Source of the DNA: an uncultured Verrucomicrobiota bacterium
Lineage (GTDB): Bacteria > Verrucomicrobiota > Kiritimatiellia > CAIQIC01 > JAGNIJ01
Reading direction: 5' to 3'
Assembly: GCA_964617565.1 (NCBI GenBank)
Contig: CAZTYH010000003.1
Coordinates: 13,666 to 68,947, forward strand
Length of the DNA: 55,282 nucleotides
The notes beneath the pieces are model-generated. The model worked only from the letters and a program-made list of their open reading frames with translations, was not told where the DNA came from and searched no databases. Of this stretch, positions 21,673-27,118 are shown in pieces. The position numbers were made by a program, and so were the translations under genes. Numbering within the stretch: position 1 is the first letter of the stretch; every line of letters starts with the position of its first letter.

Positions 21673-23019
21673 TCAGTCGCCGGGCGCCTCGCTGTCGCCG
21701 CCCAGGTTGTACCAGTTGATTTTGCGGGTCAGGAACATGACCGCGCCGAGAATTACGAACAAGCCGATGCTGCCGAGCAGCAGCGCGTAATCCTCGAGCT
21801 GGAGCAGAACGTAGAGGTATGCGTAGAGGATGGTGAGGATGGATCCCACCAGCAGGGCGACCGACGCTCTTCTGAGAATGCTGACCGCGTAGCCGGTGAC
21901 CAGCAGAATCGTTGCCGCGCTGGCGATCAGGTAGCCGCGGGCGAAAGACAGGTGTTCGGAGATGGACAGCAGGAGCGTGTAGAAAATGATCAGCGCGAGC
22001 CCGATGAGCAGGTATTGAAGCGGGTGCAGGCGCACGCGGATGAGCACTTCGGAAAGGAAGAACGCGAGAAAGGTCAACGCGATGAAGAGCGCGGCGTATT
22101 TCGCCGTGCGTTCCGATTTCTGATAGGCGTCGGTTGGGATGAGCAGGCCGACCCCGAAGGCCGAGTCGTTGATCTTGTAACGGCTGCCGGTCCAGTACTG
22201 AGGATAATTGCGGTTCAGATGCAGCACTTCCCACTGCGCGGTGAAGCCGGAAGCCGCTACGCTGCGGCGGGTGGGCAGGAACGCTCCGTCGAAACTCGGG
22301 CTGTGCCATGTGGAGGCCAGTTCCACAGAAGTTTCTCTTCCCACGGGCACAAAAGACAGTTGCTGGCTGCCGTTGATGTCCAGTTCGGTGGTCATGGCCA
22401 GGGTGCGCGATTTCCGGGAGAGCGCGGCAGGAACGGATACGCCGGATGCCAGCACATCGCTTGCCGCGATGCCGGGCTCCATCGGCCGCTCCGCGCCGTC
22501 CACTTTTGCCGTGATTTCCTGCCGCACGCCTTTCATGTCCGAGATGCCGAGCGCGAGCGCTGCGCGATCCCACTGAACGCGTTTCTCCGGGATATCCAGA
22601 CTCTTCAGGTCGGGCAATGTGAATTCGGCGGCGATGCCGATGCGCGCATTGTAGAGGACGGTCTCATAAATGCCGCGGTAGCGAACTTCGGGAATTATCT
22701 CGCCCGAAACCTTCAGCGAATCCGGCAGGACATGAAGATAACTTGTAACGGTCACCGGCTTGCCTTCCGGACCGGGCAATTCCTGTGTATAGGGAATCAT
22801 CAGCAGCGGGCCCGTCACGACCTGCTGGTAGCCCCACTTGGAGCCGATTTCATTAGCGACTTGAACTTTGCGGTGTTCGCGCTCGCGGATCAGGGAACGG
22901 ACCATGCCGGCAGGAATGAGCAGCACGAGGACAAGGAATCCGATCACGAAGACTTTGAAGGTTGTGGACTCCCGGATGCGTCTTGCCTTCTGTTTGATCG
23001 GCGGCGGTTCGCTGTTCAT
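21673..23019 (-). CDS. creD: Cell envelope integrity inner-membrane protein CreD
   Basis: The N-terminal TM segment and LIREREHR motif, large periplasmic region and C-terminal transmembrane bundle are characteristic of CreD. I trimmed the start to MNSEPPP. Confidence 0.75.
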   Translation of the reverse strand: MNSEPPPIKQKARRIRESTTFKVFVIGFLVLVLLIPAGMVRSLIREREHRKVQVANEIGSKWGYQQVVTGPLLMIPYTQELPGPEGKPVTVTSYLHVLPDSLKVSGEIIPEVRYRGIYETVLYNARIGIAAEFTLPDLKSLDIPEKRVQWDRAALALGISDMKGVRQEITAKVDGAERPMEPGIAASDVLASGVSVPAALSRKSRTLAMTTELDINGSQQLSFVPVGRETSVELASTWHSPSFDGAFLPTRRSVAASGFTAQWEVLHLNRNYPQYWTGSRYKINDSAFGVGLLIPTDAYQKSERTAKYAALFIALTFLAFFLSEVLIRVRLHPLQYLLIGLALIIFYTLLLSISEHLSFARGYLIASAATILLVTGYAVSILRRASVALLVGSILTILYAYLYVLLQLEDYALLLGSIGLFVILGAVMFLTRKINWYNLGGDSEAPGD

Positions 23020-23088
23020 GAATAGCCTCTTTTCAGGGTTAAAGCTTAAGGCGATCGTCAACTATAGACAATAACGTTTAACGGATGT

Positions 23089-23421
23089 TCACGTTGCCCG
23101 ATCGGCCTTTGCGGCAAGGATGAAATCATTCTCGGTCAGGCCATCCACCTTGTGCGTCCATATCTTCACCCGCACTTTCCCCCACGTGAAGCAGATTTCC
23201 GGGTGATGTCCTTCCTGTTCGGCTATTTCTCCGACGCGGTTGACGAAGGCCAGCGCCTCCTTGAAGTCTTTGAATCGAAAATCCTTCTCCAAGTGGTGGT
23301 CTTCAATAATACGCCACTGCCCGCCGAGTTCCCGAGCCTGTTCAGTGATCTGCTCGCTCTTAAGGGGCTTTGCGCCCGCTTCACAGGGCTTGCATTTACG
23401 CGAAACCAGTTTGTCGCTCAT
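23089..23421 (-). CDS. phhB: 4a-hydroxytetrahydrobiopterin dehydratase (PCD/DCoH family)
   Basis: 110 aa with the EQEGHHPE..F.W..V.V.IWTH signature. Confidence 0.85.
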   Translation of the reverse strand: MSDKLVSRKCKPCEAGAKPLKSEQITEQARELGGQWRIIEDHHLEKDFRFKDFKEALAFVNRVGEIAEQEGHHPEICFTWGKVRVKIWTHKVDGLTENDFILAAKADRAT

Positions 23422-23485
23422 GGCTTGCTCCCTTCATCTTTCACCTTACCACCGAAATGCGCCGGTTAAAGGGGGCGTTCGCCAT

Positions 23486-23514
23486 TTGACACGGGGTATG
23501 TCGTGGATTACGGT
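23486..23514 (+). promoter_or_regulatory. sigma70-type promoter candidate for the PKS-methyltransferase pair (TTGACA-N17-TACGGT)
   Basis: TTGACA at 23486-23491, a 17-nt spacer, and TACGGT at 23509-23514. It lies about 60 nt upstream of ATG 23576. Confidence 0.35.
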
Positions 23515-23575
23515 GCGGCTGGGCTTTTCAGGCAAATCCCTTCTTCAGAAGGATTTCAGAGAATGGAAGCATGAT

Positions 23576-24643
23576 ATGGATATCGCGGTGCGTGCGCTGG
23601 CGACCGGTCTTCCTCCCCTCTACGTTACGCAGCAGGAGTCATTCGATTTCTTTCGCGCGCACTTTGAATTGGCGGCTGAGGAGGAGGCTCTTTATCGCCG
23701 GTTGATGATGGACGGACCGATCCGCGGTCGTTTCCTTGGTATGGACAGCACCGAAGAGGCGTTGGAAACAGATCCGGACCATCTCAACGCGCGTTTTTTA
23801 AAGGCCGCGCGGACGATCGGGGCGGACGCGGCGAGGCGCGCCATGGCGGCGGCGGGCTTGCGACCGGATGATGTGGGCGGACTGGCGGTCAACACATGTA
23901 CCGGCTACCTGTGCCCGGGACTTTCATCTTACCTTGCAGGCGATCTCGGATTGCCGGTTGCGATCAAGGCGATAGACCTTGCGGGCATGGGTTGCGGCGG
24001 CGCGCTCCCGAACCTCGAGTGCGCCGCGGGATGGCTTGCTGCGGGATGCGCAAAGCCGGTCCTCAGCGTGGCCGTGGAGATTTGCAGCGCGACGCTGTTC
24101 ATGGGCGATGACCCTGGTCTTATTGTCAGCAATTCGATCTTTGGCGACGGGGCAGCGGCGTGCGTTCTCGATGTGTTTTCAGAAAAATCAAAGCCGGTTC
24201 TGTTTCGATTGCTCGACTTTGAAAGCGCCGTGTTTCCGGAGCACCGCGAACAATTGCGTTATCGCCAGGAAGGGGGACGGCTGCGCAACGTGCTGACGCG
24301 CCGCGTGCCGGCCATCGGCGCAAAGTGCGCCCGCATGGTTTTGGAGCGTTTGCTCGAACGGAACGGGCTCCAACTTGAGACGGTGAAGTGGTGGGCGGTT
24401 CACGCAGGCGGTTCGGCGGTGCTTGACCACCTGGGAGAAGGGCTGGGCCTTGATCGCGAGCGCCTTCGTTTTTCCAGCGAGATTTTTTCGGAACACGGAA
24501 ATATGTCCTCGCCGTCCGTGCTTTTTGCGATGCGTCGCGTGCTGGACGCAGGTCGGCCGTCGCAGGGCGACAGAGGCGTGCTGGTGACATTCGGTGCGGG
24601 TTTTTCGGCCTTTGCAGCTTTGGTGGAGTTCGGAGCGGCATGA
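23576..24643 (+). CDS. Type III polyketide synthase (chalcone/stilbene synthase superfamily)
   Basis: A Cys-His-Asn triad is visible in the expected contexts: NTCTGYLCPG, WAVHAGGSAVLD and HGNMSSPSVLF. Length is 355 aa. The ORF-track start at 23240 would overlap the opposite-strand phhB, so I moved the start to MDIAVRALATG. Confidence 0.85.
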   Translation: MDIAVRALATGLPPLYVTQQESFDFFRAHFELAAEEEALYRRLMMDGPIRGRFLGMDSTEEALETDPDHLNARFLKAARTIGADAARRAMAAAGLRPDDVGGLAVNTCTGYLCPGLSSYLAGDLGLPVAIKAIDLAGMGCGGALPNLECAAGWLAAGCAKPVLSVAVEICSATLFMGDDPGLIVSNSIFGDGAAACVLDVFSEKSKPVLFRLLDFESAVFPEHREQLRYRQEGGRLRNVLTRRVPAIGAKCARMVLERLLERNGLQLETVKWWAVHAGGSAVLDHLGEGLGLDRERLRFSSEIFSEHGNMSSPSVLFAMRRVLDAGRPSQGDRGVLVTFGAGFSAFAALVEFGAA

Positions 24644-25377
24644 ACACAGGCGATCGTCTCAACGTGCGTGAAAACCTGGCCGATCCCGATCGCAAGCGCC
24701 GGTTGAACGAGCGTATCTTCAGCATCATCGCGCCGCACTATGACATGATAAACCGCGGGCTCTCGTTCGGTCGCGACCAGTCTTGGAAACGATATCTCAT
24801 CGCCGCGCTTCCCCAAGTCGCTGCGCCCTGCTGTGTGGACCTTGCATGCGGCACCGGAGATCTCGCCTTCCTCCTCGCAACGCGCTACCCGGAAGGCAAA
24901 ATTGTCGGCCTTGATCTGACCGAGCCGATGCTGGTCCGCGCGCGCAAGGCGAACCGTTTTGAGCACATCGAATTTCGCAGGGGCGACATGGCGGATACAG
25001 GATTGCCGGATGCATCGGTGGATATCGTCACCGGCGGATATGCGTTGCGTAACGCGGCCGATCTTGCAGCGGCGCTGCGCGAGGTCCGGCGCATCCTCAA
25101 GCCCGGCGGCGCGGCCGCATTCCTCGATTTCTCGAAGCCGCCGGACGGATTGCGTCAACGATTGCAGCTTGGCCTGCTCCGCTTCTGGGGCGGTTTTTGG
25201 GGCGTAATGCTTCATGGTGAGGCGGATGTTTATGCATACATAGCCGAAAGCCTGCGCTGCTTCCCGGATCGGATCGAGCTGGGAGAAATGCTGGAGAAGG
25301 AAGGTTTGTCCACCGTTTCCCTGAGGCTGTTTATTGCCGGGATGATCGAATGCCGCGTGACGCGCAAAGTGTCGTGA
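24640..25377 (+). CDS. UbiE/MenG-family SAM-dependent methyltransferase
   Basis: Has APHYDMINRGLSFGRDQSWKRYL (the UbiE/COQ5 signature region) and the SAM motif VDLACGTGD. Its start overlaps the PKS stop in an ATGA. Confidence 0.8.
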   Translation: MNTGDRLNVRENLADPDRKRRLNERIFSIIAPHYDMINRGLSFGRDQSWKRYLIAALPQVAAPCCVDLACGTGDLAFLLATRYPEGKIVGLDLTEPMLVRARKANRFEHIEFRRGDMADTGLPDASVDIVTGGYALRNAADLAAALREVRRILKPGGAAAFLDFSKPPDGLRQRLQLGLLRFWGGFWGVMLHGEADVYAYIAESLRCFPDRIELGEMLEKEGLSTVSLRLFIAGMIECRVTRKVS

Positions 25378-25405
25378 TGCCTTGTACCGCGGTGGCCGGA
25401 AGCCA

Positions 25406-25434
25406 TTGCGTCGGAAGATGTTCGCTTCTATAAT
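25406..25434 (+). promoter_or_regulatory. sigma70-type promoter candidate (TTGCGT-N17-TATAAT)
   Basis: A consensus -10 TATAAT lies at 25429-25434 and TTGCGT at 25406-25411, with a 17-nt spacer. An AAGGAG Shine-Dalgarno and ATG 25454 follow. Confidence 0.45.
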
Positions 25435-25453
25435 ATGAAGAAAGGAGACGCGC

Positions 25454-27118
25454 ATGTTCCGTTCAACTCATTTACATGGTGCGCACACATGGGCGTTCCT
25501 CTTTTTTCTGGCGCAGGCCATGGTCGGCTGCGCGGGTCCATCCGGTTCGAAGCAGGGCTCAGACCCCCAAATTCTGGGCATTGAGCGCAGGGCAGGCGGA
25601 GCGATTGTTGTTGAGTGGGCAGGGGAGACGGGGAAGGTCTATTCGGTCAATACCGCTCATGTGCTTGGGCACAATGAGCTTTTCTATCCGTTGAGGACCA
25701 GCGGATCCGATGTGGAAAGCGTTCTGTCCATAACCAACATGGCGGACCCGTCGGGGGTCCGTTTTTATCGGGTCGAGGAAAAGAGTTCCGTCGGCGCGGC
25801 GCTGGTGTTGAGCGATGTTCATCTGAATCCGTTTGCGTCAACGAACGTCGCGACGCAACTTGTGGCGCGAAGCTACACGAAATGGCGCGAGGTGCTCGCG
25901 CCGCTGACGAACGAAGCCTTCTTTGCGAAGAGCGAATGGGGGGAGTCGGTCACGAGCTACAAGCTGTTCGATTCCGCGCTTAACAACGCGCAGGCGGTTG
26001 TGCCGGAACCGGACATGATTCTTTATCTCGGCGACTTTCCGGTGCACAACTTCCGCGACCTGTTTATCGCTTATACGGGAGATGCCACGGACGAGGGATT
26101 CGAGCATTTTGCTTACAAGCTCATCGGTTTTGTCGGCGACGAGGTGGCGCGCCGATTCCCGGGCACGCCGGTGTTTGCCGTTCTCGGTAATAACGACAGC
26201 TATGACGAAGACTATCAACAGACGCCCGAAGGACTTTTCTTCACGGATATGGCAGGGCTTTTCTTCACAAACGGCCTGTCGAACGCCACGAGCTTCGCGG
26301 CTTTTGCACCGAATTTTCAAAAGAGCGGCTATTACTCCGTTGCGCTCGGTACGGGCGCGCAGGCCATTGCGTTGTGCGCGAATTTTCTTTCGGTGCTGTA
26401 CACCAACCCCTCCGGCTTCATCGCGTATGATCCGGCGACAAATCAGATTCAATTTCTCGATCAGGAGTTGACGGTGTGCGGTGCCGAGGGCAAGGGGGCG
26501 TGGGTCCTTGTGCACATCCTGCCCGGAGTGGATGCGTATGCGACGTACCAGAGCTGGAAGGGACAGGGCGATCTCACCAATGTGGTCGAGATGTGGAAGG
26601 ACGAGTATCTCGGACAATTCATGCAGGTGATTGCGCGCCACAGCAACATCGTCCGGCAGGTATTCACGGGGCATACGCATATGCGCGAGTTCCGGCTTGT
26701 GAGCGATCCGCTTTCTTCCAACGTCGTGGCTGCCGTGCATGTGGCGCCCGGCATTGATTACACCCACGGAAACAATCCCGCGTTCCAAGTGCTGACTTTT
26801 GATCGGGGCACATTTGAGGTTCGCGGCGCGGTGACCTACGCGCTTTCGCGCGACAAATACACCGGTGCCACCGGCCCCGCACTGTGGGATGAAGTGTTCA
26901 GCTACAATCCTTCCTTTGGCATTCATTCCTTCGCGTGGCCGGTGATGGAAGGTGTTTATGAAGAGCTGACAAACAATGCTGCGGCCTGCGAAGTTTATCG
27001 CGCGATCTATGAAACGGGCAGGGGGCATGGAGCGATCAACTCAAACAACTGGCCCGTGTATTCCACCGCGATCCGGTGGATGACCGTTCAGCAGTTCATG
27101 GACCACTTTGAGCCCTGA
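25454..27118 (+). CDS. Lipoprotein metallophosphoesterase (acid-sphingomyelinase-like/calcineurin-like) with an N-terminal beta-sandwich module
   Basis: Lipobox is AMVGC. Metallophosphoesterase motifs are SDVHLNP, GDFPVHN, GNNDSY and GHTH. The N-terminal ~70-aa module ends in VRFYRV. Confidence 0.75.
   Translation: MFRSTHLHGAHTWAFLFFLAQAMVGCAGPSGSKQGSDPQILGIERRAGGAIVVEWAGETGKVYSVNTAHVLGHNELFYPLRTSGSDVESVLSITNMADPSGVRFYRVEEKSSVGAALVLSDVHLNPFASTNVATQLVARSYTKWREVLAPLTNEAFFAKSEWGESVTSYKLFDSALNNAQAVVPEPDMILYLGDFPVHNFRDLFIAYTGDATDEGFEHFAYKLIGFVGDEVARRFPGTPVFAVLGNNDSYDEDYQQTPEGLFFTDMAGLFFTNGLSNATSFAAFAPNFQKSGYYSVALGTGAQAIALCANFLSVLYTNPSGFIAYDPATNQIQFLDQELTVCGAEGKGAWVLVHILPGVDAYATYQSWKGQGDLTNVVEMWKDEYLGQFMQVIARHSNIVRQVFTGHTHMREFRLVSDPLSSNVVAAVHVAPGIDYTHGNNPAFQVLTFDRGTFEVRGAVTYALSRDKYTGATGPALWDEVFSYNPSFGIHSFAWPVMEGVYEELTNNAAACEVYRAIYETGRGHGAINSNNWPVYSTAIRWMTVQQFMDHFEP

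Follow-up and report, generated by a model that had tools for sequence, protein, structure and literature searches.

Actinobacteria, Azotobacter, cyanobacteria, and Planctomycetota are known to have type III polyketide synthase (PKS) operons that also carry tailoring enzymes for phenolic lipids or polyketide quinones. The methyltransferases of the Srs, Pkq, and Bps systems are ICMT-like membrane enzymes. SrsABC of Streptomyces griseus and PkqABC of Mycobacterium smegmatis and Streptomyces sp. MNU77 are alkylquinone or polyketide-quinone operons (PMC9927152). Within the Planctomycetes-Verrucomicrobia-Chlamydiae (PVC) group, the precedent is a planctomycetal operon that, like HidABC of picocyanobacteria, encodes a methyltransferase, a flavin adenine dinucleotide (FAD) oxidoreductase, and a type III PKS, the PKSs being alkylresorcinol synthases (PMC10896814, PMC8086630). 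When type III PKSs of planctomycetal Hid-like operons were expressed heterologously, the products were alkylresorcinols, which gained one C-methyl group when the operon methyltransferase and oxidoreductase were co-expressed (PMC10896814). For the Gimesia maris methyltransferase, C-methylation is the probable activity, and a two-gene form without the oxidoreductase occurs in Stieleria maiorica. Here, we analyzed a two-gene locus of an uncultured Verrucomicrobiota bacterium of the class Kiritimatiellia, located in a 55,282-nucleotide stretch of DNA (hereafter the window; GenBank assembly GCA_964617565.1, contig CAZTYH010000003.1, positions 13,666 to 68,947). In this locus, a type III PKS gene overlaps a gene encoding a UbiE/COQ5-family S-adenosylmethionine (SAM)-dependent methyltransferase (hereafter MT). 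On balance, we think that the two genes are a translationally coupled unit, a reduced phenolic-lipid or quinone operon, that makes a C-methylated alkylresorcinol-type phenolic membrane lipid and not a redox quinone or menaquinone.

The locus would resemble SrsABC and PkqABC in that a type III PKS and a putative ring methyltransferase share one operon, accompanied in close relatives of the window by an FAD hydroxylase; in canonical-PKS clusters of Verrucomicrobiota, an FAD hydroxylase gene likewise adjoins the gene for this kind of UbiE-like MT. It differs from them in that the operon hydroxylase was found neither in the window nor elsewhere in the assembly, the MT is of the UbiE/COQ5 type, the PKS lies in a separate deep clade, and the respiratory context was not found in the genome. 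Gene order is methyltransferase-oxidoreductase-PKS in the Hid and planctomycetal operons, whereas it is PKS-MT in the window, and the comparison with these operons is one of operon logic only. Those Planctomycetota loci that do encode a PKS of the window clade have a U32-like gene and a different methyltransferase instead. Three features set the locus apart from the Srs, Pkq, and Hid systems, namely the deep, uncharacterized PKS clade, the UbiE-family MT, and the missing hydroxylase. The features of the locus are the following.

23576-24643, + strand: type III PKS gene, 355 amino acids (aa), ATG at 23576, TGA stop at 24641-24643
24640-25377, + strand: UbiE/COQ5-family SAM-dependent methyltransferase (MT) gene, 245 aa, ATG start at 24640
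24640-24643, + strand: ATGA stop/start overlap of the PKS and MT genes, exact, read from the sequence
24626-24629 and 24633-24636, + strand: GGAG motifs, 4-14 nt 5' of the MT start codon
23565-23569, + strand: GGAAG, possible ribosome-binding site by its location 6 nt 5' of the PKS ATG
23486-23491 (TTGACA) and 23509-23514 (TACGGT), + strand: TTGACA-N17-TACGGT promoter candidate, weak, at chance level

The first-pass annotation of this DNA had described a 355-aa type III PKS with an intact Cys-His-Asn triad, an ATGA overlap of its stop with the MT start, and a UbiE/COQ5 signature in the MT. All three hold: the triad is Cys140/His276/Asn309 in a protein with Pfam domains above cut-off, the overlap at 24640-24643 is exact, and the MT contains the motif HYDMINRGLSFGRDQSWKRYL in addition to a full-length PF01209 match. 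The promoter candidate and leader hairpin that had also been listed are literally there, but neither exceeds chance. A consensus scan of positions 23000-25700 returned 0 promoter-like sites, with about one expected by chance, and TACGGT agrees with the -10 consensus at three of six positions. The hairpin near 23533-23556 folds worse than the shuffled mean (z = +1.21), 184 of 200 shuffles folding equally well or better. Both were dropped as evidence. The database version of the PKS (P0001, 381 aa) begins at another in-frame ATG, at 23498, but the 355-aa start is favored by an alignment in which 17 homologs, one of them 88% identical, begin at the MDIAV position.

All five CHS/KAS-III Pfam domains, including PF00195 and PF02797, matched the PKS above their cut-offs. 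The triad Cys140/His276/Asn309 does not vary among 17 homologs, and it lines up with the residues responsible for catalysis in Pks11, PKS18, and THNS. These enzymes (E values of 1e-30 to 1e-32) and rice CUS were the best sequence matches in the Protein Data Bank (PDB), with ~110-115 bits, compared with the ~150-170 bits that a canonical bacterial type III PKS from this phylum reached with the same solved structures. An AlphaFold2 model of the PKS (pLDDT 83.8, pTM 0.88) was used to query Foldseek, and the top 50 matches were all type III PKSs, with PKS18 and PKS11 best at TM scores of 0.86-0.87, PKS18 reaching 0.87. PKS18 and PKS11 of Mycobacterium tuberculosis are long-chain alkylpyrone synthases; they are the nearest neighbors in sequence (E ~1e-32) and structure and have in common with the window PKS a Cys at the CHS-197 position, but identity is only 24-27%, and the motifs NTCTGYxC, RYRQEGGRLRN (basic), and FGAGF are invariant in the window clade and peculiar to it. 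Phe189, the equivalent of CHS Phe215, and Cys170, at the CHS Thr197 position, are retained. The invariant Tyr229 corresponds to CHS residue 256; this residue is Tyr224 in THNS and a Trp in the canonical PKSs of Verrucomicrobiota. THNS Tyr224 is tied to malonyl-CoA priming, and the CHS-256 Trp position presumably corresponds to ArsB Trp281.

The first-pass annotation had proposed placing the PKS against characterized type III PKSs. On a tree that includes the solved enzymes, it fell in a separate deep clade of 32 rows (support of 99 in the Shimodaira-Hasegawa-like approximate likelihood ratio test, SH-aLRT), and the solved enzymes together with canonical verrucomicrobial PKSs formed one group (support 96). 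Within its clade, the window PKS belongs to an 11-row UbiE-linked PVC subclade (support 98). Homologs with 57-66% identity occur in metagenome-assembled genomes of Verrucomicrobiota, Kiritimatiellae, Lentisphaerae, Planctomycetota, and Desulfobacterota, and the columns of an alignment of 17 sequences average 69% identity. The clade-specific peptides NTCTGYLC and [YH]GNMSSP[ST]V matched at least 593 species-level genomes, and the clade ranges over PVC bacteria, Desulfobacterota, Nitrospirota, Fibrobacterota, and others. Judged by these sequence comparisons, the clade is deep, highly conserved, and without a characterized member. A full-text literature search found no paper on it or on its U32, radical SAM, and UbiE partners.

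The C-terminal domain of the PKS scored nearly equally with the CHS and KAS-III models (60.8 and 56.4 bits), which bears on an alternative in which the enzyme would form no aromatic ring and would be a divergent condensing enzyme of the KAS-III/CHS kind, carrying out one or a few condensations toward an unusual aliphatic lipid that the MT would then modify. This alternative is also favored by the gatekeeper and loop, which are not canonical: in the alignment, the invariant Asn238 occupies the CHS Phe265 position, and 85 of 86 sequences of the clade and its sister have FGAGF in place of the GFGPG loop, resembling the FabH motif FGGGF. Moreover, members of the sister clade adjoin FabF-like KAS genes and a B12 radical SAM gene whose product scores 299 bits with TIGR04072. 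However, the 50 closest structures and all leading sequence matches are type III PKSs and not FabH, the partner genes in relatives are of an aromatic-ring type (class-A flavoprotein hydroxylase and UbiE-family MT), and canonical type III PKS clusters carry the same tailoring set. We give this alternative little credence.

Conservation of the gene pair was analyzed by clustering the open reading frames within 5 kb of the PKS in ~85 related loci. Two loci, L119 (PKS 88% identical) and L120 (80%), have PKS and MT only, with the identical 4-nt overlap. Among the three minimal PKS-MT pairs, dN/dS was 0.09-0.17 for both genes at dS of 0.8-1.7, supporting the conclusion that PKS and MT are a real functional pair under strong purifying selection. 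The two genes are separated by 2.3 kb in L009. Six loci of the 11-row subclade (L013, L018, L019, L020, L027, and L042) have the four-gene order PKS, FAD monooxygenase (FADmo), UbiE-like MT, and second methyltransferase (MT2). Their FADmo (PF01494, 172 bits) belongs to the class-A aromatic hydroxylases. The same four-gene set was found on separate short contigs in G122, the nearest reference genome with the PKS, and the PKS was not found in the two reference genomes of the same family. Lack of conservation in relatives had been named in the first-pass annotation as an argument against the pairing. The pairing is in fact kept in the nearest metagenomic relatives and, with an inserted hydroxylase gene, in the 11-member subclade, but it is absent, together with the PKS itself, from the two same-family reference genomes.

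Seven genomes of the same class have the FADmo-UbiE-MT2 set together with a PKS of the canonical type III clade. Since the set is common to two PKS clades, both may produce a similar aromatic scaffold. These seven loci (L100-L106, in G098, G107, G044, G110, G104, G071, and G008) encode a canonical PKS, a membrane protein with an ICMT-like motif, FADmo, UbiE-like MT, and MT2, and in some of them an MMPL exporter. The membrane protein had no Pfam match, and the likeness of its C-terminal motif to ICMT was judged by eye only; in L105, it shares one open frame with the monooxygenase. An ICMT-like gene was not found in the window organism's genome.

Other related PKS loci have other partners. In Desulfobacterota, Planctomycetota, and Victivallales, genes for a weakly matching U32-family protein and a generic class-I methyltransferase lie 5' of the PKS gene, the U32-like gene holding the operon place where PVC relatives carry FADmo. 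The U32-like protein (L012, L021-L025, L028-L032, L034, L037, L040, and L041) has 400 aa, a 26.3-bit U32 match, and Cys-rich motifs. By hmmsearch, nothing linked it to Escherichia coli UbiU and UbiV; hhalign aligned it with E. coli UbiU at 51% probability over 106 columns. A function as an anaerobic hydroxylase is only a lead. A FabF-like KAS gene lies beside the PKS gene in Fibrobacterota. In the PKS sister clade (35-45% identical), the PKS gene is immediately preceded by a gene for a B12 radical SAM protein similar to TIGR04072, a ladderane-associated "lipid biosynthesis" family (299 bits against a cut-off of 360). Such loci (L044, L046, L048, L053, L059, L063, L076, and others) come from anammox, Nitrospirota, and Geobacter-like genomes. 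The window organism has a B12-binding radical SAM gene at C55:9677-11128 that is 77% identical to a gene 2 kb upstream of the L013 PKS operon, an unusually strong conservation given that the gene is unlinked here. It was rejected as a partner of the pair since it lies on another contig and is hence unlinked.

The MT matched PF01209 over positions 10-228 of 233 (135.5 bits). It thus belongs over its full length to the same Pfam family as canonical UbiE/MenG, and it barely passed TIGR01934 (159.3 bits against a cut-off of 158.35). It reached no MenG/UbiE equivalog cut-off, the best being NF001244 with 173.2 bits against 216. On the MT tree, 14 canonical MenG proteins, whose genes are part of men or mqn clusters in this phylum, were split with support of 100 from a 33-row clade, so that the window MT lies across a fully supported branch from them. 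That clade contains the window MT and, the Omnitrophota proteins described below aside, every PKS-linked UbiE-like protein, and 27 of its 33 members are PKS-linked. The window MT is 30-37% identical to MenG from men/mqn clusters of the phylum, and 45-58% identical to most PKS-linked paralogs outside its own trio. In a sample of 150 genomes of the phylum, those with Men or Mqn had two UbiE-like genes, one, 30-36% identical to the window MT, inside the men/mqn cluster and a second one, 50-56% identical to the window MT, located 1-5 kb from a type III PKS gene (G098, G107, G044, G110, G104, G071, and G008). The pairing with a quinone-type methyltransferase that the first-pass annotation had emphasized is thereby borne out, in the sense that the MT belongs to a clade of PKS-associated UbiE paralogs apart from canonical MenG.

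In two Omnitrophota loci (L054:9992-11843 and L060:9977-11831), the PKS gene is overlapped by a UbiE-like MT gene of the canonical-MenG side of the tree. The tree position of this MT suggests an independent recruitment to the same PKS family. Three stand-alone members of the PKS-type UbiE clade, in genomes G146, G056, and G020 of family f8, adjoin argD, argB, and argJ (L111, L112, and L113). These genomes had no PKS, MenB, or MqnA/D match, and a MenA match is missing in at least two of the three.

Quinone pathways were searched for in the genome of the window organism (G000; 2.86 Mb in 103 contigs, 88% complete). It had no PF02621 match (MqnA/MqnD) and no TIGR01929 match (MenB). E. coli MenB, MenC, and MenH used as tblastn queries gave no match, the MenD query gave only a weak match to a thiamine-diphosphate enzyme, and the MenF query gave only TrpE/PabB-like matches. 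NuoH/F/G, CydA/B, SdhB/C, and NqrA were not found, and no quinone-using respiratory enzyme was found in the 88%-complete assembly. FAD monooxygenase, U32-like protein, and second methyltransferase had no tblastn match anywhere in the assembly. A MenA-like UbiA-family prenyltransferase is encoded at C26:7323-8285 (- strand), unlinked to the window, and passed TIGR00751 (111.4 bits against 102.15). This gene is kept at 53-60% identity in the same-family genomes G050 and G149, and none of these genomes had MenB or MqnA/D. A cluster at C21:28084-35044 encodes NuoL/M/N-, NuoCD-, NuoB-, and NuoI-like proteins, with no NuoH/F/G match elsewhere; this gene content is more like that of a group-4 hydrogenase or an Mrp-type complex than that of complex I.

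Apart from the MT, no protein of this genome matched PF01209 over its full length, all other matches being confined to the SAM-binding core. The MT could be the organism's MenG, acting with the MenA-like prenyltransferase on 1,4-dihydroxy-2-naphthoate salvaged from neighbors, with the PKS functionally unrelated. The MenA-like protein that passes its family cut-off would fit this explanation, as would the same-family genome G050, which has an MT ortholog (55% identical) and the MenA-like gene without a PKS. In G026, of the same order, MenA and MenB are present and the sole UbiE homolog belongs to the PKS-type MT clade. Of two groupings of the window MT compared by approximately unbiased (AU) tests, that with PKS-linked rows had p = 0.32 and that with the G050 and G026 proteins, which stand alone, had p = 0.48; neither was rejected. 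However, the 4-nt overlap with the PKS gene is kept in three genomes at saturating dS, most clade members are PKS-linked while canonical MenG is in the other clade, and respiratory enzymes able to employ menaquinone were looked for and not found. G149 has the MenA-like gene without the MT, and the family f8 genomes have clade members without MenB, MqnA/D, or PKS, and in at least two of three cases without MenA. The first-pass annotation had reasoned that the MT might be a housekeeping menG if it were the only UbiE/MenG homolog of a genome with a complete menaquinone pathway. It is the sole UbiE, but MenB/C/D/H and MqnA/D were not found. On these phylogenetic and gene-content grounds, the MT does not appear to be a housekeeping MenG, and a MenG that works on salvaged precursor is unlikely.

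Since no Men or Mqn ring pathway was found and MenA-like and UbiE-like genes are nonetheless present, the PKS might instead contribute the head group to a redox quinone standing in for the Men/Mqn products, either as a non-isoprenoid polyketide quinone or as a naphthalene-type ring that is prenylated by the MenA-like enzyme and methylated by the MT. The hydroxylase and MT2 of relatives amount to a ubiquinone-like ring decoration set, the L013 operon adjoins cytochrome bd genes, and the invariant Tyr229 aligns with THNS Tyr224, all of which would be in line with such a role. Against it, neither the hydroxylase nor cytochrome bd, the complex I core, SdhB/C, or NqrA was found in the genome, G122 has the PKS alongside MqnA/D, the MenA-like gene occurs in relatives without the PKS, and 0 prenyltransferases were PKS-linked in 80 related loci. 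We consider a redox-quinone head group decidedly improbable. Two more general candidates were rejected. A link between the PKS and the MenA-like gene is ruled out by the phyletic pattern, G050 and G149 having the latter without the former, and G122 rules out the PKS as a general menaquinone replacement; more distant PKS homologs mostly coexist with MenB. The retention of MenA-like and UbiE-like genes where the classical and futalosine ring pathways were not found, together with the alignment of Tyr229 with the starter-selecting THNS Tyr224, suggested one specific variant, a third, polyketide route to a menaquinone-like quinone in which the PKS would supply the aromatic head group, the MenA-like enzyme would prenylate it, and the coupled MT would methylate it. 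We regard this route as very improbable.

A phenolic-lipid product of the PKS-MT pair fits the planctomycetal precedent (PMC10896814). In the mechanism that we propose, PKS and MT would act as one translationally coupled biosynthetic unit. The PKS triad would extend an acyl starter with malonyl-CoA, the starter most likely being a fatty acyl thioester from general lipid metabolism, and the PKS would then cyclize the chain, giving a phenolic ring as in alkylresorcinols or alkylpyrones. With SAM as the donor, the UbiE-family MT would subsequently C-methylate the PKS-made ring. Starter, ring type, methylation site, and cellular role are all inferred. The pair probably derives by reduction from the four-gene operon of its closest PVC relatives, with loss of hydroxylase and MT2; by analogy with SrsABC, PkqABC, and HidABC, the product of the four-gene operon would be methylated and methoxylated alkyl-hydroquinones, quinones, or methoxyphenols. 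The reduction might plausibly reflect the loss of an O2-dependent flavin hydroxylase in what appears to be a strict fermenter. As neither a hydroxylase nor a quinone-using enzyme was found, the product of the two-gene form would most likely be a C-methylated alkylresorcinol-type lipid. The first-pass annotation had left the choice between a polyketide-derived quinone and a phenolic lipid. Of these, the phenolic lipid is the better fit, and the quinone is unsupported in this genome, where no FAD or U32-like hydroxylase, MT2, or quinone-dependent respiratory enzyme was found.

Several points weigh against our preferred reading of a phenolic-lipid operon. By sequence, the PKS clade is far from every characterized enzyme (~115 versus ~170 bits to the best PDB match), and its chemistry may differ, given Asn238 in place of Phe265 and FGAGF in place of GFGPG. 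A further point is the alignment of Tyr229 with THNS Tyr224. Six of the 33 MT-clade members stand alone, including those of G050, G026, and the three family f8 genomes; in G026, such an MT is the sole UbiE homolog of a genome with MenA and MenB, and the AU tests leave both groupings of the window MT standing. Finally, with a genome that is 88% complete in 103 contigs, absences are provisional.

The genes around the pair appear unrelated to it. After the MT follows a gene for a lipoprotein-like metallophosphoesterase (25454-27118; PF00149, 28.9 bits), which has TTGCGT-N17-TATAAT upstream at 25406-25434 and an AAGGAG ribosome-binding site. No terminator-like site was found between the MT and phosphoesterase genes. 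The phosphoesterase gene neighbors the PKS-MT pair in no related locus. Pterin dehydratase and CreD genes are likewise not kept as neighbors, with the exception of pterin dehydratase in L120. The remaining genes of the window are housekeeping genes unrelated to the pair, and GC content revealed no clear island.

Besides the PKS clade, this locus adds to the known phenolic-lipid and polyketide-quinone operons ubiquinone-type methyltransferases of a dedicated lineage, whose genes accompany those of PKSs and not those of quinone pathways. Annotation pipelines would label such MTs as MenG or UbiE, and menaquinone capacity would be inferred where none exists. Because the window holds the minimal two-gene form, it offers the simplest construct from which to learn the product of this PKS clade and the substrate of the UbiE-like MT. 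If the product were a quinone head group, the finding would bear on the electron carriers of anaerobes that lack the Men and Mqn pathways.

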